A stretch of 63,839 bases of DNA, filler included, from Craspedostauros australis (Eukaryota): the NCBI GenBank assembly GCA_030167865.1. It is 8 parts of 8 records of this genome, joined end to end, with 100 filler letters (N's around TTAATTAATTAA, not from the genome) between each part and the next. Parts side by side here need not be neighbours in the genome. Positions count along the whole stretch, not along the records: positions 1 to 12,315 come from JALAGF010004422.1; 7 more parts are not named here. One strand, written 5' to 3'. Positions within the stretch are counted from its first letter, which is position 1. The number at the start of each line of letters is the position of its first letter. The notes beneath the pieces are model-generated. The model ran no database searches and was not told the origin of the DNA. It saw only the letters and a list, made by a program, of their open reading frames with translations. Positions 3,448 to 60,880 of the stretch are shown here, one piece after another. The translations under genes and the position numbers were made by a program.

Positions 3448-3894
3448 TATTAGCATTCTGCTTTATTCCGCACAGCTCTCTCTCGTGTTCGAGCTTAGTT
3501 GTGCGTGTGAATCGTATCCTGAACCAACACAGACCATGAAATGGTCACATTACGAGCGAATAGCTCGACGAGAAACGAAACTAAAGAAGTACCAAGGTAC
3601 TGGGTATCAGAGACAAGGTACCATGAAACAAGATCGATACTGTGAGCCAGCTACTGACCCAAACCAGTTGAACCTGAAGAGATGTAAAGATCCTATCCGA
3701 TGCTTGCAGAACAGAGGAATGCAAGAGCAGAGGCATGGACATGAACAGAGGTCAGAGAGTAAGCTCACAACTCCTAAGTTTGTAATAACATTCGAGTTCT
3801 CAACAGACTTCCAGTGAACGCCCCCTTCTCGATCTGATCAATTGCAGAAGGACGCGTTCTCCCCTACGTTACCACCAATTCCTCAAGTCTAACA
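3448..3894 (+). repeat. 5' LTR (447 bp)
   Basis: 3694-3894 matches 8409-8609 with 4 substitutions in 201 bp by eye. Terminal inverted repeat T(A/G)TTAG...CTAACA. Confidence 0.9.
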
Positions 3895-3908
3895 GATTAA
3901 CAGTCGCA
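3895..3908 (+). promoter_or_regulatory. Putative primer-binding site complementary to the anticodon arm of tRNA-Asn(GUU) (half-tRNA type)
   Basis: GATTAACAGTCGCA directly follows the LTR. Its reverse complement TGCGACTGTTAATC contains a CT-GTT-AA anticodon loop. Confidence 0.7.
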
Positions 3909-4103
3909 ATACTCTACGTCCCGAGCTGACTGAGTGAACGAACAACCCCATCCCGAGACAGCTGCATCCCAGCTGAACGAACGAGCATCACGTGACGACG
4001 TGATAGCACTCGAACCGCAATTGCATTGAACGAGTCCGCAACAGCCTGTTGCCGACATACCGAACCCCTCATCACCCGAGCGCATCCGCTGTGAAGAGAC
4101 AGA

Positions 4104-7100
4104 ATGAACCCGATCATCTCCAAGATGACATCCACGAACCCACTGGACATCCTCAACCACGCCCTCAAGGCGGTTGGGATCAAGAACGACTCCGACGAGC
4201 GTCGAGTCATCACCTCATCTGGCGTAGAGGACATCGACGACCTCACGCTGTTGACGAAGTAGGACCTGGATGGCCTCCACATCACCATCTCCAAGGAGGG
4301 TAGCGAACCCTACAATTGCAAGCTTGCCGCACTGCATGTGCGCAAGATCCTTGCGCTGGAGCGCTGGTACGACAGCCAAGGAGGCATGGAAGCCAGCACC
4401 TGGCTTGAGCTGAACGCAGCTCGCCTTCAGACCTTCATGAAGAAGGAGAAGAAGGCAGAATCGAAGACAACCATGGCAGAAGTGCCCACACCTGACGTGA
4501 TCCCCTCGTCTACCCCATCTTCGGACGATGTCGCGGCCTTCAAGCGTGGCACCAAGCGCAACCTGAGCGACTACCCGACCATGAAGAACGACGAGCAGTT
4601 CCTGCAGTTCGATCGCCGTCTCCGAGCCACCGCAGCGGCCCATGGAATCAAGAACGCCGTCGATCCTGAGTACCTGCCAGCGAGTGAAGAGCTCGCACTG
4701 TTCGAAGAGCAATGTACGTTCCTGTACTATGTTCTCTCAAACTCCCTTCGCACCATGAAGAGCCGCAACTGCCTCTTGCCGTACGCCGACAAGGAGGACG
4801 GACATGACGTCTACATGATGTTGAAGGAGGAGTACGCCTCTGGCGTAGCGGCGACCAACAAGGCCCAGATGATCCAAGCTGAGATCAGGAACCTGAAGCT
4901 CAACAACACCTGGAACAGCAGCCGTGAGACATTCGACAATAGCTGGTTGTCGAAGGTGAACGACCTGGAGGAGGTCCAAGACAGCCCAGTCGCCGACGAC
5001 TGGAAGATGCAATGGCTGCGTGAAGCCATCGCTCCAGACAACGACCTCTGTCGCGCTCTCGACGACGCCGACGCTCTCCAAACCAACATGAGCCTCACCA
5101 CTGGCAAGATGGACTTCTCTCTGGACTTCGATGCGTTCCTCGGTATTGTGCGTCGTTCTGCACAACACAACGACCTGCGCAACCCGCGCAACAAGACGAA
5201 GCGCAGGATCAACAACACCAACAAGGACAACGAGAAAGGCGAAGACAACGCCAACAAGAACAAGACCGGAACCCATCGCATCCCGGATGACGAATGGAAG
5301 AAGATGACCTGGCCTCAGAAGAAAGCGCACATGGAGGCGCGTGGCCAATGGGACCCTTCCAAGAACAAGAGCAAGAACAAGTCCCAGCGTCAGGCCAACA
5401 AGACCGCTGGCACTGACAAGACCTCATCGGGATCCTCTTCTGGGGAGACCGGTACCAAGACAAGCGCTGCCCCCGGTGACGCTATCAAGCGTATGCTGGC
5501 AAACACACAGACCAGCAAGAGTGAAGAGATCACAGTCAATGGTAAGGTCTACCGCACTGTGAACATCACCGAAGTTTGCTACAGCTTCAACAAGGCAACC
5601 ACCAACATGTCTGGTTCCCTAATTGACAGTGGTGCGAACGGAGGTCTCGCTGGAGAAGATGTCGTGGTCCTGGACAGGACCGGACACACAGCGGATATCA
5701 ACGGGATCGGTGATACCACGATTTTCAACCTCGACATCGGCACCGTGGCTGGCCTCGTCATGTCGACTGAAGGACCCATCATCGTGAAGTTCTACCAGTA
5801 TGCCATCCATTGGAAAGGCAAGACAATCCATTCCTCCAACCAACTCGGAGCGTTTGGGTTGGATGTGAACGAGCGTCCAAGCAGCCTACCAGGTGGTCGC
5901 CAATCCATCATCGTGCCAGACGGACACATCATCCCTCTTGCGATCCGACAAGGTCTGTCGTACATGGACATGCGTCCACCCACATCCAAAGAGATGGGCA
6001 CCTATCCGCACGTTGACTTCACGGCGGATGAAGTTTGGGATCCATCCGCACTCGATCAAGAAACCCTGACGGCGGAACAGTCACTCGATGAAATTTCTGA
6101 GGAAACTTTCGAATCTCAGGATGCCCTTAAGGTTTCCAAGACCAAGAAACTCGGTGAGATGACAACACCAGTTACCATCCAACGTACGCCAATCAACTAC
6201 AAGGCGCTCCGCCCGCGGTTCGGTTGGATCCCCGCTCTACGCATCCGAGACACACTCCGCTGTACCTCCCAATGGTACCGCTCCTCCGAGCGTTTTGAGA
6301 TGCGCAAGCATTTCAAGACCCGATTCCCAGCAGCCAAAGTCAACTGTCTCCACGAGACAGTGGCGATGGACACTCTCTTTTCCGATACACCCGCACATGA
6401 TGATGGTGTTCCAGGACATGGTGGGTGCACCATGATCCAGATCTATGTTGCTGTGGACTCTCGCTTCACTGCTGGATTCCCGATGGCATCCGAGAAGCAG
6501 GTCTCCAGCACCTTCCAGGAGTTCATCAGGCGCCATGGAGCTCCGGATCTGTTGATGTCAGACAATGCAAAAGCAGAGATCGGATTCAAGATGCAAGACA
6601 TCCTCCGGCAATATGCTATCGCCGACCACCAGAGTGAACCCGAGCATCAGCACCAGAACGCCGCTGAGCGACGCATCCAGGACATCAAATGGATGACCAA
6701 CGGTGTCATGGACCAAACAGGAACCCCTGCCCGCTTCTGGTTGATCTGTACGATGTATGTCATCGTCCTCTTCAATCACCTGGCACAACGAACGGCAGGC
6801 AACGTCACGCCAATGCAGGCCGCCTACGGGCATCGTCCTGACGTGAGCAAGTTCATGTGCTACCACTGGTGGCAGCCAGTGTACTACCAAGTCGAGAAGC
6901 CTGGCGTCCCCAGCCAGTCTCGCGAGCGCAAGGGACGCTGGGCGGGACCGTGTCTCCACAAGGGAGATGATCTGACGTACTGGGTGCTCGACGACGAGAC
7001 GCAGCAGCTCCTGCCGCGATCTGCTATCCATGCTGCCGGCCTCCCACCCGAGTCCAACCTTCGTGCCGACTTCCCCATGCCTGACGCTGGGGAGGATGAC

Positions 7101-7843
7101 GGCTTGGCCAAGGTCCCATCCGCTGATGGGGAGCTTCAAGACGACTCTATCATCGAGTCCACTGCCGACCCGGTCGTTCATTCCCTCTCGGACGAAGTTC
7201 TTTTCGCTTCTGACGGAGCCGACAATCGAGCGACGGACGGGGGAATCGTCAAGGTGCCGCACTTCACACCTGAGGAACTGATCGGAAAGACCTTTGTGTA
7301 TGATCGTGATGGCGAGCAAGTCAAGGCGGAAGTCATCCAACGTGTGAATGATGCTGATGCCGCAAACCATCAACGCATCAAGATGCTCCTTTCCATCGAT
7401 GACGGAGCTGTCAACGACCTCATCTCGTATGTGGAACTGTCCGATCTTATCGAACAACAGACCGACAGCAGCACCAACAGAGAAGATGCCAAGTGGGGAT
7501 TCCACAGCATCACAGGACACGAAGGACCCTTGGTACCAACCTCCAACCGATACAAAGGATCTAAATACAACGTGATTGTCCAATGGGATGATGGATCTTT
7601 GACCACAGAACCACTCTCGCTGATGATTCGAGATGATCCTGTGTCGTGCGCTGTCTACGGACGCAAGCATGACCTCCTCGAACATCCAGGGTGGAAGCGT
7701 CTCAAGAAGACTGCTGAACGGCAAGGACGCATGAAACGGCAAGCACACATTGCCAAGACCAAGTCCAAACGACACACCAACACACCCATCTACCAGTTTG
7801 GTGTGCAAGTGCCACGCAATCACCAAGAAGCCATGCGCCTGGA
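4104..7843 (+). pseudogene. Copia Gag-Pol polyprotein (Gag, protease, integrase, chromo-like domain, first residues of RT), truncated
   Basis: ATG at 4104, premature TAG at 4260-4262, then in frame with ORF 4338. Protease LIDSGANGG; integrase VAMDTLF...LMSDNAKAE...QNAAERRIQ; RT N-terminus YQFGVQVPRNHQEAMRLD, after which similarity breaks abruptly. Confidence 0.93.
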
Positions 7844-8408
7844 TGTCGGAATGTGTGTACTCGGATGTGTATGCATCAGTCACACTTGCGCGCCATCATC
7901 CAGAATATTTGGTGGCGGAATCACGACCCAAAACTATGACGTCACAGCAATACCACCGAGATACCACAAGGATACTGCGATACTACAATGACAGGATACC
8001 GTGATACCAGCGGATACCACAGTATCCATCACACGTGACGTCATATTGAGACCTTAACTACCAGGTCTACAGGAATGAAATATGTTGTGAATATTCCATC
8101 AGATTCGATCAATCATCAGGTTCAACAAAACNNNNNNNNNNNNNNNNNNNNNNNNNNNNNNNNNNNNNNNNNNNNNNNNNNNNNNNNNNNNNNNNNNNNN
8201 NNNNNNNNNNNNNNAATGTGCATGGAGGTGCAAGAGGATTGCACCAAGCAATGAGAGCAAGGAAGAGATGGATCAAGAGAGCATCTTGATCATCTCATAC
8301 CTCACGCTCGCTCACTAACAATCAATAGCAACAACAGTAACAGTAACAGAAACACTTTGAGAAAGAGTGTGACTACTACCGATTCTCCGTGCGCGGAGCC
8401 TTCCAACA
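7844..8408. mobile_element. Second-family LTR-like segment (solo-LTR-like) replacing RT/RNase H; contains an N gap
   Basis: Starts TGTCGGAA and ends TTCCAACA (8-bp inverted repeat, 1 mismatch). It begins exactly where polyprotein similarity stops and ends exactly where the host 3' LTR resumes. GATAC motifs cluster at about 7950-8020. Confidence 0.65.
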
Positions 8409-8609
8409 TATCCGATGCTTGCAGAACAGAGGAATGCAAGAGCAGAGGCATGGACATGAACAGAGGTCAGAGAGTAAGCTCACAACTCCTAAGTTTGTAA
8501 TAACATTTGAGTTCCCAACAGACTTCCAGTGAACGCCACCTTCTCAATCTGATCAATTGCAGAAGGACGCGTTCTCCCCTACGTTACCACCAATTCCTCA
8601 AGTCTAACA
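8409..8609 (+). repeat. Partial 3' LTR (last 201 bp)
   Basis: Direct repeat of 3694-3894, ending CTAACA and followed by the TSD. Confidence 0.9.
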
Positions 8610-9270
8610 TGTTGGATGAAGAGGAGGTACTGGAGGAGTGGCAATGTTGTCTCCTGGGGAGGCTGTATGGCAGGAATTGCAGGGCGGCTTGGTGGATTTG
8701 TTGGAGAAAAAGAAAGTGTTGTGCTGGGATTGCTCATAAATTGGTGTTGGGAATGGAGGGAAGTTCAGCTGTGGAATGGTTCTCTGGTTGCTGTCATCAC
8801 CAGTGAAGAATGCACGACCATGGCGACTACCTCGTGTGGCGGTGGTGTCTCTGGAGAACTCTTGCGTGCTGCTGCTGTCAGTGTAGGATTTGTGTGTTGG
8901 TGAAGGGATGGGGCCAACAGTGCTGCCTTTGTGGTATTCTCCTGACCAGACTGATGACTTGTGTCATTGTCCAATGAGGTGGCAGTGGTACCTGATGCAG
9001 GCAGATTGGGATTGCCCCAAACATTGCTGCTGTTGCAGAATTCGTTGTTTCCAAGGAAGTCTCTGTAGGTTGGACTTTGCTCAGAATTGGATGTGTTGTT
9101 GTTATCTGCAAAGAAGATGGCACAGGAAGGCATTCCATTGAGGAATATGATGTGTGGCCATGAGCTGCCATAGGGTGATCTGTCATATGCATGGTGCATG
9201 TGTGAGGGTGAGGTGGGCAATTGGCCTGTGGGGGGTGCAGGCTTTCGTGAAGGCTTCTTTTGGGATCAAC
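8610..9270 (-). pseudogene. N-terminal low-complexity part of the same piggyBac transposase ORF
   Basis: Removing 3448-8614 joins ...ATPPVPPLH to PTVPPPYSPLPIGNHKPRFAGVRNVKTTVDSLL in one open frame, which stays open from about 8963 into ORF 2834-3376. The start codon is uncertain. Confidence 0.7.
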
Positions 9271-9294
9271 CATGATGAAGCTTTTGAATTGGGT

Positions 9295-9565
9295 GATGCT
9301 GTGATGTTGTGATGCTGTGATGCTGCGATCTTGCAATGCTGTGATGCTGCGATGCTGTGACGCTGCGATGTTGGTATGCGGCGATGTTGGGATGCTGTGA
9401 TGCTGCGATGTTGGGATGCTGCAATGTTGTGAACCTGCAATGCTACAATATTGTGATGTTACGATGTTGCAATGTTGTGATGCAGCCATCCTGTGATGTT
9501 GTGATGCTGTGATGCTCACATGATGAGATGCTCACATGCTGTGATGCTCACATGCTGTGATGCTC
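9295..9565. repeat. Degenerate 8-bp tandem repeat (GATGCTGY/GATGTTGT)n in the piggyBac 5' region
   Basis: About 30 imperfect units are visible directly. Confidence 0.9.
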
Positions 9566-10261
9566 GTTGCACGGTAAGAGACTCAGGCACCACAACCCGC
9601 AAGCAGCACATTGGTAGCAAGAGGCATGCTGATACGTAACAACAAAGGCATGGCGTGTGGGTGTTGGCAAGGAAGCGGATTCGAAAAACGAAAATGCGAC
9701 CTCGCCAATTTGGCGATTCGCGTCTCACCAATGGAATGAGCGACAGTCCCGAAGCTCAAAATCGATTCACGAGTACATTAGGCAACTATATCAACCTAAA
9801 GACAGTAACAGACATATAAGTTTGATAGCATGGTTGGAAAGAAGAGCTCGAGAGGATGAAGAATATGTAAAGAAAAGAGGTTCCCACTCGTAGGCGTTGG
9901 GGTCAATAATTCGAATAACTGATTTCGAATTGTTTATCTCCCAATTATTGGGCGATAGGTCGTAAAGGGATAGACCACATGGTTGTGACCGCCTCGGCGA
10001 GAGGATTCTGAGATGACATCTATTGTGCAGAATGAGCCCAAGACCGCTATGTCCGGAGACTTCAAAGATGGAGAGTCAAAATCCTCGAAAAAGAGGCAAG
10101 ATCCTACCAGACCCCTGTAGAATCCTACGTGTAGTCAACTGTAGCTAACAAGATCCAACAACAACCCGTTCTGTCCGTCGTCCGAAGGCAAAACCACACA
10201 CCAAGAGGGTCAACAAACACAAAAAGATCGACTAGACAGTAGTAACAACAAGATGATGTTA

Positions 10262-12415: not shown

Positions 12416-14152
12416 GACCGGATGGTCAGCCGTTGCAGAGTCGTCAAGTGGACGTTCCCGGTGTTGGACTGTTGGCATTCGGCACATTTCCGTACAAGAT
12501 CTTCACCAATTACACGGTGGCTGGAACTAGAAGCTACTCTCATCGATACAACATCCTTCCTCCTGTTCTTGCTCCTGGAGGTGCTCCTTTTGGGATCTCG
12601 CAAGGCTTCGATTTGTATGCAACATCGACCTTCGAGCTGGATGGGAGGTTCATCACCTTGCCATACCAGGCGAATAGCAACGCCACGGATGGCCTGTTCA
12701 CGGATGATGAAGTGACAGTGACGTACCAAGTTGGAAACGACACGCTCTTCGCCAAGACGATCCGCGACGTCACGCCTGGCACCTTTCTCACGACGAGTCA
12801 AACCTGTCTCAAGAAAGATTGCGACACCGTTCGCGAGTTGGCATCGATCTATCAAANCTTCCAGCATACNNCCTCGCAGGGGTGCACCAATCAACGCATC
12901 AGCGAACAGGAGTTCGTCGAAGGCATCGCGGCCACATACCAGCAATTCATGGTGCCAGAAACAGCCCGTGTCAGCGTGCCGATGGCGGATTCATCTCTGT
13001 CCGGCTCTTTTCCTGGCGAGGAGGAATGGTGCAAGGTACGATCACGATCACGTATATGCATGGATTGATTGCTGTCAAAGATATGGATCTGTGGTGGTTG
13101 CGAAGCAAAGGCGTGGCATTTTTTGGTTCGTTACATTCCTTTTCTTGCTCGCTCACTCATCCAATGATCTTCACTTCTTCGCCAATGCAGTTCGATCCAA
13201 ATTGCGCCACAAACCCATACCAAGANCCAACCACGCCNGTCAAACCAGGTGTCATCGCTGGATTCNCAATCGGCGGCGTACTCGNCTTCCTCATCGCAGT
13301 CTCCGTCGGAATATACGTCTACAACAAGCAGCAAGCAAAACGATACCGCACCGTCTTCGCTGCTCGTGTCGCACAGACCATGAGCATCCGCGTTCCAGCC
13401 AGGCGCATGGACGCCGTCGCATTGGCTCGCGAGTTCCAGAAGATCGATGCTCAAACTACCGCAGCCGACAGCAGCAACCGGCGTGCGAGTTCAGTGGGGA
13501 ACATCACAAAAGAAGGCATGTGGGAGTTTTTGAACTCTGGGAAGGCGGTCGAGATGAACCGCCATGACTTCGAGGCATTGTGGGCGGTGATGGATGCTGA
13601 TGGTAGCGGATATGTGGACTTTCTTGAGTTCTGCGCCTTCATGGGTCAAGTGAGTTCGATGATGTGTTCGACGTGGCGCTGTTCTGTTCTGTTCTGTTCT
13701 GTTCTGTTCTGTTCTGTTCTGTTCTGTTCTGTTCTATGCTCTGCTGTACTGTTCTGTTCTATGCTCTGCTGTACTGTGCTGTGTTATGATGCGTGCGTCG
13801 CATTGACAAGGTGCAACAAATGGCCCATTCAACCCCGCATCATTCTTCATGGCATCACGTCTTTGTCACTCATCCAACTACCCATCCACCGACACGTTAT
13901 CATCGTCCATTCATCATCATCATCATCATCATCCATTTTTCAAACCCGCAGTGCCACGAGGAATACGACAATGCTCGTGACGATCGCATGTTGATGGCGG
14001 AACGTCTGTCCCGTCGCTTCTCTCTCCGTTTGTCTCAGATTGAGGAGAACTCCGCGCAACAAGCAGCATCCGAGATCGAAGCTATCGCTGGTGTCGACGC
14101 AGATGCGGACGCAGACACGGACGCCAAAGCAGATGCAGGCGATTCCGTCTAG
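12416..14152 (+). CDS. Type I membrane protein with cytosolic EF-hand, copy 1 (5' truncated by gap); exons <12416-13035, 13191-13649, 13952-14152
   Basis: GT-AG introns in phase; TM segment GVIAGF.IGGVL.FLIAVSVGIYVY; canonical EF loop DADGSGYVDFLEF; near-identical to 21896-23523. Confidence 0.85.
13681..13785 (+). repeat. (GTTCT)n microsatellite in the intron of copy 1
   Basis: About 11 perfect units plus a degenerate tail; largely absent from the corresponding intron of copy 2. Confidence 0.9.
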
Positions 14153-14445
14153 AATGACACTGCACCCTCGTTTGAGTAGAGTGACTCTTTCGGCTTCCCT
14201 CCACTCCAACCATCGTGGTCTTCATCAATGCATAGAAGACATCGGAAAACACTCACATCCAGTTCACAGCAATGCATAGAGACGAGAGGCCACACATTCG
14301 AACACCATAGTGCATTCGTTCAAAAAGTACGAATCTATTATATTTAACACAATGTTATATACGCTACTCTCCTACTATTGATCCCTTCCGCGCAGATCAC
14401 CATGAGGAGAGCGGGCATTGTGACTGTAAGTTCACTGGTCACGTT

Positions 14446-16619: not shown

Positions 16620-17455
16620 GTGCTGGTGTTGGATTTCTATGTCGATCAGTATCTCAATGGATGGGAGGGTGATCATTAGGACTTCGGAGTTTGCCTTGAT
16701 TGGTTACTGTTCGTCGTCCTGTCCACACAAGAAGACGGAATCTGTCCAGTTCCCAGTTTAGAAGGACTTGAGTCGGTCTTCTCCAATGCTGATGTTGGTC
16801 CTCTTGTGGCTGCTGTGTTTGTGTTCATTCTCTTGCCTCTTTCGCTTCAACTGTTGTCTCAGCTGTTCTTGTTGTTGCCATTCTCTTGTTCGTTTTGTTG
16901 TAAGTGTTGCTGCAGTTGTTGCAGTTGTGGGTGAGCTGAAGGCGAAAGTCCTCTGATGAGGAACTCCATACACTCCAGCTGTCCATCGCGGCATGCCGCA
17001 TGAAAGGGAGTCCAACCATGTCTGTCTTCGCAGTTGGTGTTCGCCCCACAGAATTTGATGAGGTACTCGATACACTCCAGCTGGCCACCAAAGCATGCCC
17101 AATGAAGGAGAGTGTCACCACTGTCATCTTTGCAGTTGACGTCAGCCCCACATGTTCCGATGAGGTACTTGACACACTCCAGGCGGCCGTTGAAGCATGC
17201 CTCATGAAGGGGAGTGTCACCACTGTCATCTTTGCAATTGATGTTGGCCTCACATGATTCGATGAGGTACTTCACACACTCCAGGTGGCCGTTGAAGCAT
17301 GCCTCATGAAGGGGAGTCCAACCAAAGCTGTCTTTGACCTTGTTGACATCAACTTCTTCATGCTGCGTCTTGTTCTGCTTCTTCCATTCCTTCAACACCG
17401 ACAAGTCACCTTCCTTGGCAGCATCAATGAGTTGTTGGTTGGTAACACTCGGCAT
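16620..17455 (-). pseudogene. Ankyrin-repeat (4 repeats) plus decayed BTB gene; paralog of 57816-59714
   Basis: The N-terminus NQQLIDAAKEGDLSVLKEWKKQ is shared with the paralog. In a shifted frame, TNISIGEDRLKSF*TGNWTDSVFLCGQDDEQ*PIKANSEVL matches the paralog's BTB start, with two in-frame TAA stops. Confidence 0.85.
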
Positions 17456-21411: not shown

Positions 21412-23523
21412 ATGAAATTCCCCATCGTCAACCAAGCTTCTCCGCTGCTCCTGGCAACCATCATTGGTATCGTCAACGTGAGGCATGTGGCATCCGCCAA
21501 GTGCGGTGATCCTTGGCGCGAACCGTGTCTCGGCGACACCGACGCCAGATACAAAACGGACCTCAATTATGATATCGAAGCGCAGAGCGATCTTGCGGTA
21601 CGTCAATCATTGCCCAGTCACTCTGAGGATTCAGTTGGGTTGATCATGCATGCATACCAGCTCGCCGTTGCACAATATGTGCGACGAGTACCAAACGCTC
21701 TCAATCATTGATGGTCTGCTTGTCTTGGAGCGGCCCCTCTGCTCTGCTCCGCCCTGCACGATCCCACGAGCATTCTAACATATGGTACACATTCATTCAT
21801 CCGTCCATCATCTGTCTGGCTCCATTGTATTACTTACTCTTTGATCACACAGGAAGCATTTCAGGGATACTACGTGTGCGACAAGTACATGTACCGACCG
21901 GATGGCCAGCCGTTGCAGAGTCGTCAAGTGGACGTTCCCGGTGTTGGACTGTTGGCATTCGGCACATTTCCGTACAAGACCTTCACCAATTACACGGTGG
22001 CTGGAACCAGAAGCTACACTCATCGATACAATATTCTCCCTCCTTTTCCTGGTTCTGGAGGTGCTCCTTTCGGGATCTCGGCAGGCTACGATTTGTATGC
22101 AACATCGACCTTCGAGCTGGATGGGAGGCTCGTCACCTTGCCGTACCAGGCGAGTAGCGCTGCCACGGATGGCCTGTTCACGGATGATGGAGTGACGGTG
22201 ACGTACCAAGTTGGAAACGACACGCTCTTCGCCAAGACGTTCCGCGACGTCACGCCTGGCACCTTTGCCACGACGAGTCAAACCTGCCTCAAGAAAGATT
22301 GCGACACCGTTCGCGAGTTAGCATCGATCTACCGAAACTTCCAGCACGCATCCTCGCAGGGGTGCACCAATCAACGCATCAGCGAACAGGAGTTCGTCGA
22401 AGGCATCGCGGCCACATACCAGCAATTCATGGTGCCAGAAACAGCCCGTGTCAGCGTGCCGATGGCGGATTCATCTCTGTCCGGCTCTTTTCCTGGCGAG
22501 GAGGAATGGTGCAAGGTACGAGCACGATCACGTATAGGCATGGATTGATTGCTGTCAAAGATATGGATCTGTGGTGGTTGCGAAGCAAAGGCGTGGCATT
22601 TTTTGGTTCGTTACATTCCGTTTCTTGCTAGCTCACTCATCCAATTATCTTCACTTCTTCGCCAATGCAGTTCGATCCAAATTGCGCCACAAACCCATAC
22701 CAAGAGCCAACCACGCCCGTCAAACCAGGTGTCATCGCTGGATTCACAATCGGCGGCGTACTCGNNNNNNNNNNNNNNNNNNNNNNNNNNNNNNNNNNNN
22801 NNNNNNNNNNNCAAGCAAAACGATACCGCACCGTCTTCGCTGCTCGTGTCGCACAGACCATGAGCATCCGCGTTCCAGCCAGGCGCATGGACGCCACCGC
22901 ATTGGCTCGCGAGTTCCAGAAGATCGATGCTCAAACTACCGCAGCCGACAGCAGCAACCGGCGTGCGAGTTCAGTGGGAAACATCACAAAAGAAGGCATG
23001 TGGGAGTTTTTGAGCTCTGGGAAGGCGGTCGAGATGAACCGCCATGACTTCGANGCATTGTGGGCGGTGATGGATGCTGATGGTAGCGGATACGTGGACT
23101 TCCTTGAGTTCTGCGCCTTCATGGGTCAAGTGAGTTCGATACTGTGTTCGACATGGCGCTGTTCTGTGCTGTGCTTTGTTATGATGCGTGCATCGCATTT
23201 ATGGTGCAATGAATGGCCCATTCAACCCAGCATCATTCTTCATGGCATCACGTCTTTGTCACTCATCCAACTACCCATCTACCGACACGTTATCTTTTTC
23301 CATTCATCATCTTCCACTTTTTTCAAACCCGCAGTGCCACGAGGAATACGACAATGCTCGTGACGATCGCATGTTGATGGCGGAACGTCTGTCCCGTCGC
23401 TTCTCTCTCCGTTTGTCTCAGATTGAGGAGAACTCCGCGCAACAAGCAGCATCCGAGATCGAAGCTATCGCTGGTGTCGACACAGATGCGGACGCCAAAG
23501 CGGATGCAGGCGATTCCGTCTAG
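21412..23523 (+). CDS. Type I membrane protein with signal peptide, Cys-containing ectodomain, TM and cytosolic EF-hand, copy 2; exons 21412-21597, 21853-22515, 22671-23129, 23335-23523
   Basis: Signal peptide MKFPIVNQASPLLLATIIGIVNVRHVASA; three phase-0 GT-AG introns; EF loop DADGSGYVDFLEF; TM partly masked by Ns. Confidence 0.87.
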
Positions 23524-24564
23524 AATGACACTGCACCCTCGTTTGAGTAGAGTGACTCTTTCGGCTTCCCTCCACTCCAACCATCGTGGTCTTCATCAAT
23601 GCATAGAAGACATCGGAAAACACTCACATCCAGTTCACAGCAATGCATAGAGACGAGAGGCCACACCTTGGGACGCCTGCACACTGCGCCCTCGTGTGGG
23701 ATAATATGAGCCCGATCAGTGAGTCGACCTGCACTCCGTTATTGGCCTCCAGAAATTTTAGCTTGGATATCCCAACCAAGCACATATNNNNNNNNNNNNN
23801 NNNNNNNNNNNNNNNNNNNNNNNNNNNNNNNTTAATTAATTAANNNNNNNNNNNNNNNNNNNNNNNNNNNNNNNNNNNNNNNNNNNNACAAATCATTGTG
23901 ATGCAAGAGGAAGAACGCTGCGGAACGATCATGTCCTGTGAAGAGCGTGGAGGACATGGATAAGCATGCAACGAACATATGTATACGAAGAACTGTGATG
24001 AGATGCAAGTGGCTCAATGCATCCAGGAGAAGCATTGAGCCATAGTAAANNNNNNNNNNNNNNNNNNNNNNNNNNNNNNNNNNNNNNNNNNNNNNNNNNN
24101 NNNNNAAAAGTGAGCGCGAACAAATAGTTTTAGTCGAGGTGGTCGAAGAAAATGCCATCGCGATAAAACGTCGCGTTGCTTGATTTTGGTCTGAGGAGAC
24201 CAATTTTGGCACCCCTCGAATCCGCTTGGTCTCCTGAGACAATTTTGGACTTTTATCGTGGACGAATTTCTTTATGGATATCATTATGGATATGCCAATG
24301 GTTACCAATAATTACCAATAAGTGCCAACAAACCGGAAATTTGCCAATAGCCACTAGTGCTATCGTGACCCCATTTTATATTCTCCGCAGGCAGTAAAGT
24401 AACCGGGTCTTAGTTTGGAAATCCTAGGGAAAAAGTTGTCATGTTCATTTCAAACAGTTGGTCGACTCGCTGATCGTGGTCCTGTTGGCCTCGCTAGACA
24501 GTCTTACGCTTTGCCATGCTGATGTCGGCTTTGAGCAGGGAGGGCCATGGCTGGATTCACGGGT

Positions 24565-53423: not shown

Positions 53424-55269
53424 TCTTTCATCGCGTTCTTGGGCTTTTCGTTCAATCTCTTTGTGTCGATCAGCGGTTCTGCTGGAGGGTGGGATGGTGA
53501 GACCTTTGGTGGATCCGGGCGTGTGCGTCTGCGTCGCGCACCAGTACTACTACCTGCGAACAGAAAACAGACGCACACATCAACAAAAGGATTGGACACT
53601 GTATGGCCCCATTCAGGATAGAATCGTACGTTTTTGCGGATTTGACATCGTAACACGTGATATTTTTAGAACATGATTTTTCGTGTTGTCCATTAGGGTT
53701 AGATATATTTAGCTAGCTTCTACGACACAAATACCTGGCTGACTTGTCTTCACCGCGGACGAAATTGATGACGTCTTTGACGGTCGATATCAGACGGCAG
53801 TGGAATCCAATGGTGTGGATGGTGACGTTGTCGCAGATTCGGTGTTGCCTTGATTCCTTGCGTTGTTGGTGATTTGGTTCTGTTGTGTGCTTCCTCGTTT
53901 GTGTGTGTGTTGTGTCAAACAGCACAGCGTTGGTGGCAGCGTTCCTGCACGTCCATGTTCACAGCAACAGCAACACTTGAGAATACCACACAACACAGTA
54001 TTATATAATGCATTGGATCACAGTGGCTTATCCTGTGGTATGCAAAATATTGTATAATATTATATTATACTATTTAATGTTAAGCTTAGTTTGTACATAC
54101 AAAGTCCTGCGCAACCTGCATCTCTCCCCTTGCTGACCTGATGGCACGACGCGGAAAGATACTGGTGNNNNNNNNNNNNNNNNNNNNNNNNNNNNNNNNN
54201 NNNNNNNNNNNNNNNNNNNNNNNNNNNNNNNNNNNNNNNNNNNNNNNNNNNNNNNNNNNNNNNNNNNNNNNNNNNNNNNNNNNNNNNNNNNNNNNNTTTT
54301 TTCCAATTCCATGGTTCCGTTTGCATGATCTGGCGTCAGAGCACGTTTTGGTGCTTCTGATCCTGGTGGTGGGACAGACGTTGAATTTGTCATTTTGAAG
54401 GATCGAGCAGACAAACAACACGAGAATGGGCTCTACTGTCAAACCATTCTGCTGAGAATCGGACAACCAGTGATGGTGCAGATCAGCCAAAGAGTGTTTC
54501 GTATCTGGTTTTGCAGGGGAAGCAAAGTCAAGGGCAGACTGCTACTAGCCGCGACAGCTTTTTTGGCTGCTGCGGTCACATCGGATGATCCGTTCAACGT
54601 TTTGCATCTGGTGATCTGTGGGAGGGTGCGTTGAGTGTGACAGTTTTTCTCGACTGTTGCCATCCTTGCCTTCGACATGGAATACAGTCTATTCCAGCAT
54701 TATCACATGGGCTGGNCCATCCATCCACCAACTTTTCCATGCACCCNTGGAAGTANTCAACNTGGCATGCNCTGCCAACGTATTGCAATGTTGGTGCTGA
54801 GCNTGGTATACTCTGGGAAAAGATCCGTCCACAGACACACCTCACATCAATTCTGCTCTCCCATACATGTACAGACCCATCATACTTCTACCAGGCTGGG
54901 TCCATGCTTTTCACAGCATCCCATGTGAGCTTGCACAATACACGAATAGATGGTGTTGTCCATCCCTCCATCCATCCAACCATCCAACCATCAGCAGGCA
55001 AGCAAGTGGCCACAAGAGACAACATGGTCATCATGACGACTGCATCCAAAGCCTCCAGCCACCAACATCCTTGGAACATGCACAGACATCAGAACCGTGG
55101 AGGTTGCTGGAGAAGAACCAATAGGATTGAGTAGCAGCAATAGCAGCATCATCTCATCTACTCCTGTTGNNNNNNNNNNNNNNNNNNNNNNNNNNNNNNN
55201 NNNNNNNNNNNNNTTAATTAATTAANNNNNNNNNNNNNNNNNNNNNNNNNNNNNNNNNNNNNNNNNNNN

Positions 55270-57715
55270 TGAACATTTGTGCATCCGACACCCCACTCAT
55301 CGATGAGAAGCCAAGCTCCCACAAGATCAGAGTTGGGAATGGAGAATGCGTCGTGGCCCAAAGCGAAGGATTCGTGGATATGGTTGATGCCGAGACTGGC
55401 AACCCAATCCGCATCCGTGTGGTCAAGGCACCGCAGTTCACCAAGAACCTCATCAGCATCAAGAAGTTGAAGCAAGGGGGATACAAGGTGGAGTTCGATG
55501 ACGACGTCGCAATTGTCACTCACAAGGCATCAGACAAGACAGCCTTCAAGTGTACCACTGCCGAGGATGGCATGTACTACCTCAACCCTGACTTGGACCA
55601 AGCACATTGTGCCCAGCTGATCACTACGGCACGAGCTCGATACCACCAGGNNNNNNNNNNNNNNNNNNNNNNNNNNNNNNNNNNGTCGAAGGAGGTTGAT
55701 ACCACCATGAACACTGAACATGATGTTCCCACCGATGCACCCAACATGGTACCACCCAGAGGTGTTCCCACCGATGATCCATCGAGAAACCCCAACGCGG
55801 TACCACCGGCTGACGTTCCTACCAATGACCCACCGAACACACCAAACGACGTCACCCCAGTCCGATCCAAACACGTGGACATCAACGAAGCCCATGACAA
55901 GTTCGGACACATCGGCCGCCGTCTCCTTGAGAAGACTGCACAGCAGTTCAACATCAAGTTGACAGGAGAGTGGAAGGCATGCGTCGCATGTGGGTTGATG
56001 AAAGGCAAGCAGAAGAACGTGCCTAAGTCCACAGCAACTCGATCGGTTGTCAAAGGGGAGAGAATCTTCGTCGATACCACTGGACCCTTTTCACCTGGGA
56101 TCGCAGGCAATCGGTATGCATACGTGATGGTCGATGACTGTACCCGATACAGCTGGGTATACTACAGCTCACACAAGACTGAGATGTCTTTGCATGTGGA
56201 GCAAGTCTCACTCGACATCCAACGTGCAGGAGGCCAACTGAAGTACATTCGTGCTGACAATGCCGGAGAGAACGTGGCGCCATTGGAGAAGTGGAGTCAA
56301 CGCACNNNNNNNNCACTTGAGCTGACAGCCCCGTCCACACCGCAGATGAATGGAGTCGTGGAGCGACGCATTGCACTGTTGACCGAGAAGGCCAGAACGC
56401 TGGTCACAGCTGCAAAGTTCACCACAGAGGCTCGGACGAAACTCTGGACTGAGGCCTACACCGTGGCCAACATCCTCACGAACATCACCAGCACCAACGC
56501 CGACGACGTCTCATCCTTTCAGAAGTGGACTGGCAAACCATCCAAGCTGGTACCTCACCTCGTCCAATTTGGCAGGATTGGCATGGTCGCGGATCGGGAA
56601 CTGATCAAGGGCAAGTTTCGCCACAGAGCCAGGAAGATGGTGATGGTNNNNNNNNNNNNNNNNNNNNNNNNNNNNNNNNNNNNNNNNNNNNNNNNNNNNN
56701 NNNNNNNNNTCAAGCTATCTCGCGATGTGCAATGGCTGGACTGGGAGCGAATCCATCCAAAACAGGGCATGCAAGTCTTTGAGGAGGAGGAGGATGATGA
56801 AGCGGACGACATCCAACGTCCAACAGGCACTCCAAGTGTTGATGGAGATGGGAATCCGGGCAGGGAGGACCCAGTGACCGTCACACGGCCAAGTCAAGCA
56901 ACGGCAATGACGGATGCCGACGTTGCAGTGGGGAGGAATGACACCCCACAAAGCGGGTCTGGCACTCCACCGTCAGGCAACCCATACCGAACCCGGTTCG
57001 AGCGATTTGCCAATACCAAACCAGGCAAGGCCGCTACCTTGGCTCAACACCATCCAGCAGCTCGCAAGATGCTTCAGGCAGTGCAGCAGCGCGAAGCAAT
57101 GCGTGGCACGGACAAAGTGGATTCGGTGGAGCAGCAACTCAACTCACCAACTCCTGATCACCCAAGGGCAACGATGGATCGACAGATCGTGGTCCACCAA
57201 GCACCAACTGGGGAGGACCAAGATGAGGAGGTGCACTTCGTATTCTCTACACAGGAAGACGACACTCCTACCACCGTGCGACAGGCTCTATTTGGACCAG
57301 ACCGAGAACAATGGGCACCATCCATGGCCGAAGAGGTCATGAACTTCTTGTCTCGGAAGGTGTGGAAGAAGGTTCCACGCAAGGTCGCAAACAAGGTCGT
57401 CAACAAGATCATGCGAACCAAATGGGTCTTTGTGAAGAAGCAACTCTCAGANGGCTCCATCAAATACAAGAGCAGGTGTTGCAACAAGGGCTTTGACCAA
57501 GTACCAGGAGTGGACTTCGAGGAGAGCTTCGCACCAGTGGCAACTGATGCATCCATACGGCTTGGACTCAACATCTACCTGTTCCAGGAGGACTGGACAA
57601 TCGAGATGATTGATGTCAAGGCGGCATTCCTTGAAGGGACCATGGACCGACCAACCTTCATCGAGATACCTGAGGGACTACATGAACTGGGCTTTGTCAC
57701 CAAGCAAGACAGAAC
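55270..57715 (+). mobile_element. Ty1/copia Pol fragment of a second lineage: protease C-terminus, GAG-pre-integrase, rve integrase, RT start
   Basis: KNLISI, H.KFGH...C.AC..GK, IFVDTTGP, VDDCTRY, IRADNAGE, TPQMNGVVERR, TKWVF.KK, YKSRC..KGF.Q.PGVDF.ESFAPV, IDVKAAFL; bounded by linkers. Confidence 0.93.
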
Positions 57716-57815
57716 NNNNNNNNNNNNNNNNNNNNNNNNNNNNNNNNNNNNNNNNNNNNTTAATTAATTAANNNNNNNNNNNNNNNNNNNNNNNNNNNNN
57801 NNNNNNNNNNNNNNN

Positions 57816-59714
57816 CATCATAGACATGCGACTGTACTCGTCATCAACACCATCGCTGACTGTTCCTCCACTGCAAAGGACTTGGATGCCTCCCATCAGT
57901 TGAGGTTGTTGAATGATCTTGTTGAAATCTGGATGACCAAGACAAGCCTGTGCATTTTGAGATACCACTCTCATTGCCGCATCTTCCAACACTGAACAGC
58001 TGTGTTGATGGGCGAATATCAGCGTATCAATCATGGTGTCCTTTGTGAGGTGCTTGCGAGCCAACTCCGCTTCAAGAACAAGCTTGAGTCGCCAGAAGCC
58101 GAACTCGTTGGCCACAAGGATCAGCTGCTGCAGATCGTGTTGTCCATTGAGGATGGGAGTTGGCTGGTCATCGCCANCGNCATGNTCGCTCTCATCGAAG
58201 GATATNTCCCCCTTGTAGATGCATTCGATGACATGGCGGACATATTTGGGTTGGAGGTCAGGAAGAGCCACGGTTGTTTGGATGGAGTCAGTGATCGGGT
58301 CAGCGACAGGGTCAGTGACAGAATCAGCGACAGGATCAGCGATAGAATCGTCCCATGACGATGACAGCGAGGATGTTGATGACAGCGAGGATGTCGATGA
58401 CGGTGGGGATGATGGCTTGGTCAAAGATAGATGGTGGATTCCAGAGTCGATCAATGTTTGAATCGATGGGACGGTGACCACGAGGACTCCGCTGTTTGCC
58501 TTGATCGGTTGTTGTCGGTCGCCTTGTCCACACAGGAAAACGATGTCTGCGTTCGCCTCGGTACGAACAGCGCTGCAACGATCTTGGCCGATGCTGATGT
58601 TGGTCGTTGTGTTGATGTTCGACTTGTTGTGCTTGGGTGTTGCTGTGGCAGTGCTTGTGATGCTTCGTTTGTGAAGCTGTAGTTGTGAGCTCAGGTGACT
58701 GAGACGCTTCATGATCGATTTCATCATGTTGATCTGATGTGTTGGATCGATCACATCGAGGGGTGTTCTGTTGTCGTTGTTCTTGATGTCGATATCGATG
58801 TTAGCGTTGGTTGATTCGATGAGGCACTTGACGCACTCCAGATGACCAAAGCAGCATGCGCGATGAAGGGGAGTGTCACCATCGTTGTTTTTGCAGTTGA
58901 CGTTGACCTCACACGATTCAATGAGATACTTGACACACTCGACATGGTCATTGCGGCATGCCAGATGAAGAGGAGTGGAACCATAGTTGTTTTTGTAGTT
59001 GGCATCGGCCTTCGCAGAGTCGATGAGGTACTTGGCACATTCGAGATGACCATTGTGGCATGCCAGATGAAGAGGAGTGTCATCATCTTCGTTTTCGCAG
59101 TTGGCATCGACCTTCGCAGAGTCGACGAGGTACTTGGCACACTCGAGATGACCATTGCAGCATGCCAGATGAAGAGGAGTGTCATCATCGTTGTCTTTGC
59201 AGTTGGTGTTGGCCTTCGCAGAGTCGACGAGGTACTTGACACACTCCAGATGACCATTTTGGCATGCATCATGAAGAGGAGTGCCACCATCGTAGTGTCT
59301 GCGGTTGGTGTCGGCCTTCGCAGAGTCGATGAGGTACTTGACACACTCGAGATGACCTTCGGAGCATGCCAGATGAAGAGGAGTATTACCATACTCGTTT
59401 TTGAAGTTGGCATCAGCCTTCGCAGAGTCGACGAGGTACTTGACACATCCGAGATGACCATTTTGGCATGCCAGATGAAGAGGAGTGTTACTATCTTCGT
59501 CTTTGCAGTTGGCATCGGCCTTCGCAGAGTCGACGAGGTACTTGACACACTCCAGATGACCATTTTGGCATGCCAGATGAAGAGGAGTGTCACCATCGTC
59601 GTCTGCGACCTTGTTGACATCAACGCCTTCCTTCTGCTTCTTCCATTCCTTCAACACAGACACATCACCTGCCTCGGCAGCATCAAGGAGTTGTTGGTTC
59701 GAAACATCCACCAT
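57816..59714 (-). CDS. Ankyrin-repeat (8 x 34 aa) plus BTB/POZ domain protein; 3' end in gap
   Basis: TPLHLAC.NGHLECVKYL repeats; BTB ADIVFLC...IKAN..VL, LPDL.P.....VIE.IY.G, L..VANEFG..RLK..LE; BACK-like LIFAHQH.C..LE. Confidence 0.92.
58780..59603 (-). repeat. 102-bp coding tandem repeat array (ankyrin repeats)
   Basis: Units are nearly identical at nucleotide level, e.g. CCTTCGCAGAGTCGACGAGGTACTTG recurs with 102-bp period. Confidence 0.95.
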
Positions 59715-60880
59715 GTTGAGACGATGGTTGATGGTAGATGATTGTTGAGCGTTTGTTAGTTGGATGATGCGTGAACGATGAGTGGACGATGCGTGGACGA
59801 TTGTTGATTGATTGTTGGATGTTGTTTGATTGGTGATGGTTGGATGATTGGTTGCCGAGGATGATTTTATGGCATGATGCCTGCTTTATGAGATGAAATG
59901 GTCAAGATCCAGATTGTGTGTCCCAATTCCACCAGTGCAACGACGAGCAAGTGTACGAGTACGGATACGAGTATGTACGCGTAGTCGTATGATGCCGTGT
60001 GATGAGCAGCATGCCAACGCCTCTTGTTGGTGGATTTGAGCGTGGATTTCGATGCCTGGAGTAGGACTCGCACAACGTTGTTGTCTCCTCGCCTCTGTCT
60101 TTGATTGTCTTTCATTGTCTTTCATCGTCTTTCTCTCTCCTTCTGTCGCTTTCTTTCTGTGTTGGTCTCCGTCCCTTGGTCTCCATCCCACGATCGTGTC
60201 CTGCTTCGACACGAGTACGATCTATGGAGTGTTGTGGAGGAGGATCACCAGCGTGGAGTCTCAACACCCATCGTGTCCTGGTTTTGTTGGGTCATGTGGG
60301 GCACCAAGAAGTGGAGTTGGACAAGAACACTCTCCACGAGACGATCTTTGTGGGTTGTGGGAACGAAACCAGGGGATCTTGTGTGATGAGAACGGAGTAT
60401 CTTCGACTCGCGGGATCGTTGAAACAGAACAATGACCATGGTCACCAATCGAAAGCATGAAGAAGGCGATCGATCAATCGATGTGACACACATCGAGTTC
60501 GAACTGTTCGGACAATGTTGTCATTGGTTCATTTGGTCATGAGAGGACGAGGCATGTGTTACGATTGACTGCGTCTCGTGATGTGTCAGATCGCATCCTC
60601 ATCCATGTGAATGTGGATGTGGTTGTGCTCCGATCCACACAAGTAGAATACCAACTGGAGTACTCTCTGTATTTGGTATGATATTATACAATAGAATAGA
60701 ATACATAGTGATTCTTTGTAGTCTACGGCTTTGTGTTCATGAAGCAGCGTAGCCTTTGATATTCGTCTGATGGCAAGAGCGTAGATCGTTCGTGGCAACG
60801 TGTGTTGATTTCTGTCATTGCGAAGCCACTGTGCCGAACGCTGCTGAGTCGAGTGTCCATTGTTCGGACCAGCTCACATT

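Follow-up and report, generated by a model that had tools for sequence, protein, structure and literature searches.

Immediately downstream of the 5′ LTR of a Copia-type retrotransposon in Craspedostauros australis there is a 14-base site, GATTAACAGTCGCA, that we consider likely to be the minus-strand primer binding site of a diatom CoDi-like Copia family, which would be primed by a 5′ fragment of tRNA-Asn(GUU) ending at position 40. The element is located in a stretch of DNA of 63,839 nucleotides (filler included), the whole of which was analysed and is referred to here as the window. According to the model that we propose, a cytosolic tRNA-Asn 5′ fragment ending at C40 would anneal to the 14 bases past U5, reverse transcriptase would extend this fragment into U5 and R, and the usual strand transfers would follow. 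At the level of sequence the tRNA-Asn reading is very probably right, and from it we infer the host tRNA and the primer molecule. That a cleaved tRNA-Asn fragment would serve as the primer is suggested by analogy with copia and Ty5. Half-tRNA-Asn priming by a diatom Copia element, which would link replication of the element to the production of tRNA fragments, had been put forward in a preliminary description of this DNA. The position of the site, its conservation in the family and the identity of the tRNA arm all uphold that proposal, but its novelty is smaller than was implied.

The element in the window and the site after its 5′ LTR

Table 1. Coordinates of the Copia-type element and of its putative primer binding site, counted along the window
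Feature	Coordinates	Strand	Remarks
5′ LTR, repeated part (201 nt, end ...CTAACA)	3694..3894	+	98% identical to 8409-8609
Putative primer binding site, GATTAACAGTCGCA	3895..3908	+	reverse complement = tRNA-Asn(GUU) positions 27-40
CTCTAC box, 3 nt past the site	3912..3917	+	weak; reverse complement GTAGAG = 3′ side of the tRNA-Asn D arm
Gag-protease-integrase frame	4104..7847	+	ATG at 4104, one in-frame TAG at 4260-4262
N run (assembly gap), between truncated pol and 3′ LTR	8133..8214		sequence
3′ LTR, repeated part (end ...CTAACA), then TGTTGGATGA	8409..8609	+	repeat comparison

The two LTR copies, recovered by a repeat search and compared by pairwise alignment, differ at 4 of 201 nt (98% identity between 3694-3894 and 8409-8609). 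In this alignment the identity reaches ...GTCTAACA in both copies and ends exactly at CA, beyond which the 5′ copy continues with GATTAACAGTCGCAAT and the 3′ copy with TGTTGGATGAAGAGGA. It had been claimed that the 5′ LTR (...CTAACA) is followed directly by GATTAACAGTCGCA and not by TGG, and inspection of positions 3885-3908 bears this out: the bases ...aagtctaaca occupy 3885-3894, and the 14-mer follows at 3895-3908 without a gap. The 14-mer adjoins the 5′ LTR only, with unrelated DNA after the 3′ LTR, and the site is therefore external to the LTR and immediately next to it, as is expected of a primer binding site. Its absence from the end of the 3′ LTR rules it out as a part of the LTR and as an integrase end site. 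A site of the 3′-CCA type was ruled out as well, since there is no TGG in the approximately 40 bases past the 5′ LTR; a better 3′-CCA-type site would have spoken against the earlier proposal, and none was seen in these ~40 bases. No second copy of the 14-mer is present in the window. Since 0.41 matches with up to 2 mismatches would be expected by chance, such uniqueness is not significant by itself, and the significance of the site comes from the relatives.

Several features of this copy are irregular. The repeated LTR block starts with TATCC and ends with CA, unlike Copia LTRs with their TG...CA ends. The sequence upstream of 3694 differs from that upstream of 8409, and 3694 is therefore the start of the repeated part and may not be the true 5′ edge of the LTR. 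There is no short (5 bp) target-site duplication, in that the TGTTG found after 8609 has no counterpart before 3694 (or 3641), and this may reflect recombination or the assembly gap. No clear purine tract is present directly upstream of the 3′ LTR (8409). The focal frame is open from the in-frame TAG (4260-4262) to 7991, and the homology of its protein (P0001) to the relatives ends at about residue 1170 (~nt 7847), just ahead of the expected RT. Between ~7847 and the N run at 8133-8214 the sequence is unrelated to the relatives of the element, and the 3′ LTR is beyond the N run. The absent RT and RNase H may have been deleted, or they may be inside the gap. This copy is thus either defective or misassembled, and its ends may be rearranged. 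With an in-frame stop and no RT the window copy is dead, and its site is an inherited family feature and not a working part.

A Pfam search of the window polyprotein returned zero matches. A protein search, in which 8000 candidates were scored, gave 198 relatives at E ≤ 0.001. Among the best 120 of these 198, many are ~1800-1900 aa in length and carry PF07727 (RVT_2), which in the full-length relatives (~1800 aa) comes after the integrase region that aligns to the window protein. When 22 relatives were aligned together with the window protein, the consensus order was gag, protease (LIDGGANGG), DDE integrase, RT (YVDD) and RNase H. Judged by this order, with integrase preceding RT in the relatives, the element is of the Copia type. 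P0043, whose cluster includes the Phaeodactylum tricornutum proteins XP_002181206.1 and XP_002176128.1, and P0106, an Entomoneis paludosa transcript, both match the window protein at E < 1e-160. The preliminary description had treated the element as a Copia of a diatom lineage, a view with which the gene order in the relatives and the Phaeodactylum and Entomoneis members agree. These members support the assignment to a diatom Copia (CoDi-like) family.

The window contains other repeated sequences. A second Copia fragment (55218-57767, plus strand), with the Pfam domains RVT_2, rve and Pol_BBD, has no detectable similarity to the focal protein. Its 5′ side enters an N gap (54168-54296), so that it provides no second primer site from the same genome, and its other end is truncated by an ankyrin-repeat gene of the opposite strand (57768-59885). 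A segmental duplication (12416-14306 and 21896-23677) contains five repeat families with a spacing of 9.4-9.5 kb and 92-98% identity. The tract at 9255-9582 has an 8-nt periodicity and is made up of 28 overlapping copies of a 112-nt unit in 8-nt steps. Finally, 102-nt tandem repeats are present at 16936-17361 and at 58799-59608; the two sets are 66-70% related to each other, and the set at 58799-59608 is inside the ankyrin-repeat ORF (57768-59885).

Conservation and variation of the site among relatives

Metagenome contigs were scanned once with the family alignment, which yielded 78 loci encoding proteins that are 30-49% identical to the window protein over the best tblastn segment. A scan of viral contigs gave 61 pattern matches with no relative among them. 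Of the 78 loci, 33 contain the exact 11-nt core of the site, GATTAACAGTC, on the gene strand; there are 35 occurrences in all, of which 29 follow CA and 6 follow TA. The chance expectation for this core is ~0.10 per strand in the 427,157 bases examined, and once the relatives are counted the conservation of the site is far beyond chance. Eight more loci (L004, L005, L019, L024, L029, L031, L033 and L048) have 1-3 extra bases in the motif, and in L052 a copy of the motif is broken by an N. Conservation of the motif in related copies, the lack of which would have spoken against the earlier proposal, was thus observed: in its exact or extra-base form the motif is present in 41 of the 78 loci, or in 41 of 46 when only loci containing the expected region are counted. 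The 37 motif-less loci comprise 27 without a gag start, 5 with less than 500 nt upstream of gag and 5 with at least 700 nt. The motif is absent from the gene strand of these last five (L020, L032, L038, L040 and L044) despite the length of their upstream sequence. For the subfamily of L039, L040 and L044 the LTR end was sought by comparing the 5′ part of L040 with the 3′ part of L039, and no match was found.

Two of the metagenome loci, L008 and L045, contain two LTR copies each. In both, no more than two bases separate the end of the repeat from the motif, which is found after the 5′ copy alone. In L008 the blast repeat ends 2 nt early, the 3′ copy having TA where the 5′ copy has CA. Long repeats in L004 (1561-3216 and 8833-10487) and L045 (1-4690 and 7543-12232) span internal sequence plus LTR; they look like two tandem elements with one common LTR, or like an assembly wrap-around. 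Several other metagenome contigs are circularly permuted, with the site past the end of RNase H. The sole opposite-strand core among the 78 loci is at L020:561-571 (minus strand), beside an L047-like LTR end and ~270 nt upstream of the plus-strand gag, and is an inverted element fragment or the product of a chimeric contig.

A quick maximum-likelihood tree was constructed from the protease-integrase region of 44 loci and the window, 34 loci with a match of less than 300 residues having been dropped. In this tree there are two major clades with an SH-aLRT of 99 each, and the canonical motif is present in both. Among canonical copies, bases 1-11 are invariant by row selection; the complement of the loop and the two closing pairs are constant. 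Bases 12-14 fall into eight classes (GCA 10, GTA 10, TTG 5, ACA 3, TCG 3, GCG 2, TGA 1 and TCA 1), and from base 15 onward the information content equals background. These classes are scattered on the protein tree: the sister of L003 (GCA), for instance, is the L007 group (GTA), and the TTG class appears at five separate places. Such scatter at bases that correspond to tRNA positions 27-29 is expected if the stem of the host tRNA sets them, and both descent and a local hairpin could also contribute. Against the tRNA reading, eight versions of the tRNA-Asn stem would have to exist among the hosts to account for the eight classes, and the variation in bases 12-14 may be shaped by the hairpin and not by the tRNA.

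The extra bases of the eight variants (L004:2171, L005:99, L019:449, L024:4984, L029:7080, L031:7962, L033:7343 and L048:543) are opposite tRNA loop positions 32-35. In these variants the primer's last 6-8 bases and the stem strand stay paired, with the exception of L024, which has one substitution, opposite tRNA position 37. L029/L033 and L031 are sister elements, and their 3-base inserts, which share one position, are different. This placement of the extra bases fits a two-segment pairing with the tRNA. The same variants show that perfect complementarity is not required, and this counts against the tRNA reading.

The hairpin referred to above was found in minimum-energy folds, in which bases 12-14 are paired with downstream sequence in 24 of 41 distinct elements, a count that is inflated by related rows; when the tails were shuffled (100 shuffles) the corresponding value was 11.7 ± 2.8 and never rose above 18. 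The 5′ arm consists of the last bases of the site, with the partner 10-40 nt downstream. Elements with this hairpin include those in the window (3901-3932), L003, L005, L007, L014, L017, L026, L045, L055 and others. The hairpin arms differ between elements, and covariation thus maintains the pairing. The stem of the window copy is weak (−6.6 kcal/mol for a 60-nt segment). The hairpin seems to be real but limited to the variable end of the site, and may be likened to the partial occlusion of retroviral primer sites.

Proposed pairing with tRNA-Asn and alternative explanations

Prokaryotic genomes were searched with the reverse complement of the site extended by 3 stem-closing bases, and at least 120 loci matched. 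Of 14 that were sampled, 12 are tRNA-Asn(gtt) genes, all of them bacterial or archaeal, with the match at positions 27-43; in L079, for instance, the tRNA-Asn gene is at 95-168 and the match at 121-137 corresponds to positions 27-43. The preliminary description had read the reverse complement of the site as positions 27-40 of the tRNA-Asn anticodon arm, and the 12 genes among these 14 prokaryotic loci agree with that assignment. The complementary region comprises the 5′ stem strand, the loop CU-GUU-AA, and the first two bases of the 3′ strand (U39 and C40). U at position 33 is obtained in a single register, and the anticodon in that register is GUU; the anticodon-arm partner, if there is one, is therefore Asn. 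A point against this reading is that every tRNA gene in the comparison comes from bacteria or archaea, and it is from these that we infer a match to the host tRNA-Asn. Yeast tRNA-Asn presumably carries the same string. With introns allowed, an ARAGORN scan of the window and of the 78 metagenome loci detected no tRNA.

It was of interest to compare the sequence past the site with the D arm. In the sampled tRNA-Asn genes, position 27 is preceded in most cases by the nine bases GGCAGAGCA or GGTAGAGCA. When the 10 bases past the site were scored against these D-arm strings, L002 matched at 9/9, L003, L054 and the window at 7/9 (a score that in the window needs a one-base shift), and the L007 group at 6/9. 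Matches of at least 7/9 were obtained in 4 of 34 distinct elements, and 200 shuffles gave a mean of 0.57 and a maximum of 4. This is a modest hint that in some members of the family the D arm may be paired too, in keeping with a 5′ half as the primer. The CTCTAC box of the window may, on weak evidence, lengthen the pairing with the tRNA 5′ half. Eukaryotic tRNA-Asn is modified to queuosine at position 34, t6A at 37 and m2,2G at 26, and m2,2G26 would explain why regular complementarity stops at position 27.

We regard it as unlikely, although worth stating, that pairing reaches far more of the tRNA-Asn 5′ half than 14 nt and that tRNA-Asn fragments are primers or leftovers of CoDi elements. L002 would pair over 23 contiguous bases, into the D arm. 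Spacing is irregular at tRNA positions 25/26, and extra bases are found opposite loop positions 32-35. These are places of bulky modifications in tRNA-Asn (m2,2G26 and queuosine 34). If such extended pairing took place, variants of the site would record how reverse transcriptase copes with modified tRNA bases, the D-loop-to-anticodon fragments of Phaeodactylum could be primers or leftovers of CoDi reverse transcription, and stress-induced tRNA cleavage would be tied to the stress-induced activity of CoDi elements. The primer sequence of Ty1 is reportedly not inherited, and this makes it less likely that the site variants are copies of the tRNA.

A related possibility, which we judge to be rather improbable, is that tRNA-Asn is indeed paired with the site but that the primer is not a preformed 5′ half, either because the intact tRNA is cut in the particle or because a fragment extending from the D loop to the anticodon is used. 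The D-arm complementarity of L002 (9/9) and of L003, L054 and the window (7/9) is compatible with these forms. In addition, the excerpt of a review that was available ascribes the Ty5 primer end to internal cleavage by host RNase P, and ~19-nt tRNA fragments that span the D loop and anticodon are described in Phaeodactylum, with 9 cases in the available portion of the source. The accessible supplement text of the Phaeodactylum small-RNA paper (PMC4247016) contains no Asn entry. Sequence cannot separate intact, half or internal-fragment primers. Quite improbable, in our estimation, is the notion that the motif is a cis-acting element of the leader RNA, be it a packaging or dimerisation signal or a conserved hairpin of the kind present in GalEa, and that its likeness to tRNA-Asn is coincidental. 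An element of this sort would account for the pairing of the 3′ part of the site with downstream sequence (24/41 elements, 11.7 ± 2.8 when shuffled) and for the tolerance of 1-3 extra bases, and fungal GalEa does have a conserved hairpin in place of a tRNA site, according to the part of the literature at hand. However, the hairpin touches only the variable end of the site and not the invariant core, and the invariant part is exactly the complement of the 7-nt Asn anticodon loop and two closing pairs, with the primer end at 40. By our own estimate, the probability that an arbitrary conserved 11-mer matches any of ~45 anticodon arms is ~1e-5. Further, presumably unrelated elements of rust fungi have this core as their proposed tRNA-Asn site, as given in the accessible part of the report on them.

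Least credible of all is self-priming as in Tf1, in which the site would pair with the 5′ end of its own transcript, which would then be cleaved into a primer. Although this mode is predicted for some Copia lineages, for example plant TAR in the text available to us, no complement of the core (≤1 mismatch) was present in the 1.5 kb upstream of the site, be it in the 33 loci or in the window, and neither strand of the window contained a second match to the 14-mer (≤2 mismatches).

Comparison with known systems

CoDi elements are the main transposons of diatom genomes, and some are activated by stress in Phaeodactylum, as stated in the accessible text of PMC2806351. The CoDi elements of Phaeodactylum and Thalassiosira (e.g. 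Blackbeard and Surcouf) resemble the element in the window in belonging to a diatom protein family and in having the Copia gene order. The word 'tRNA' is absent from the accessible text of PMC2806351, where 'PBS' denotes a buffer only, and 'PBS' does not occur in that of a paper on the network of CoDi clades (PMC2774666). A search of openly accessible full text and of supplements in text form returned no report of tRNA-Asn priming in diatoms, and neither the 11-mer nor its complement led to a retroelement paper in full text. For the start of CoDi reverse transcription a simple, testable model of priming can now be offered. CA or TA followed by GATTAACAGTC provides a sequence tag for the 5′ LTR boundary in diatom and metagenome assemblies, and there is now a concrete reason to seek tRNA-Asn 5′ fragments in diatom small-RNA data.

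The primer binding site of copia and Ty5 begins with GGTTATG, and its geometry, the anticodon plus four bases, is presumably the same as that of the site in the window. As described in the portions of the literature available to us, copia and Ty5 are like the element in the window in that they are members of the Copia superfamily in which the 3′ end of the primer is internal, in the anticodon arm of a tRNA, and not at CCA. They are unlike it in that the primer is the initiator Met tRNA and in that priming was demonstrated by experiment, whereas in the window it is deduced from the sequence. According to the review mentioned above, the primer of copia is a half-tRNA, and that of Ty5 arises by an internal cleavage ascribed to RNase P.

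In the same partial sources, half or internal tRNA-iMet is assigned to copia, Ty5, plant Osser, Bryco, Gymco-II and the Candida LTR family zeta, half or internal tRNA-Ile to plant Bianca and a Puccinia Copia, internal tRNA-Lys to fungal FunCo1, internal tRNA-Arg(UCU) and tRNA-iMet to the Candida Tca families, and a tRNA-Tyr anticodon-arm site to Puccinia. Bianca, Osser, Bryco, Gymco-II, FunCo1 and Tca, as they are described there, have in common with the window a Copia site on an internal region of a tRNA, the tRNA being specific to the lineage. They differ from it in the tRNAs and in the hosts, none of which is a stramenopile, and for none of them is a half tRNA-Asn named there. The accessible part of a plant survey reports half-tRNAs of Met and Ile only and places tRNA-Asn among those matched mostly via the 3′ end. 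From these sources, half-tRNA priming so far looks confined to the Copia superfamily.

The closest parallel in primer identity is in fungi. In the accessible text of the Helenus paper (Kojima 2024, PMC10886601), tRNA-Asn-GTT is chosen once as the primer of fungal Helenus. The part of its supplement that was available carries ATTAACAGTC eight times; the internal part of Helenus-3_PGr starts with cGATTAACAGTCGAA, and LTR-2_PSt starts with cAATTAACAGTCGAA. Section 3.6 of that paper, in the text available, names tRNA-Asp in two sentences for what is seemingly the same class, including Copia-6_PHord, and tRNA-Asn-GTT in a third; to judge from their sequence, the elements in the supplement fit Asn. 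In these rust-fungus elements, as far as they are given in the accessible material, the site adjoins the 5′ LTR and complements the anticodon loop of the tRNA, as it does in the window, and the first 12 bases of the window site (GATTAACAGTCG) are shared either completely or in all but one. Helenus differs from the window in its fungal hosts, in that the elements are mostly non-autonomous, and in the last bases of the site, which are GAA as opposed to GCA. Anticodon-arm priming is known, then, from the sources at hand, with Met, Ile, Lys, Arg and Tyr, and with Asn in rust fungi. What appears to be new, as seen in the sequences collected here, is a tRNA-Asn site as a family-wide rule in a large diatom Copia lineage, which would extend half-tRNA priming to a stramenopile and to one further tRNA.
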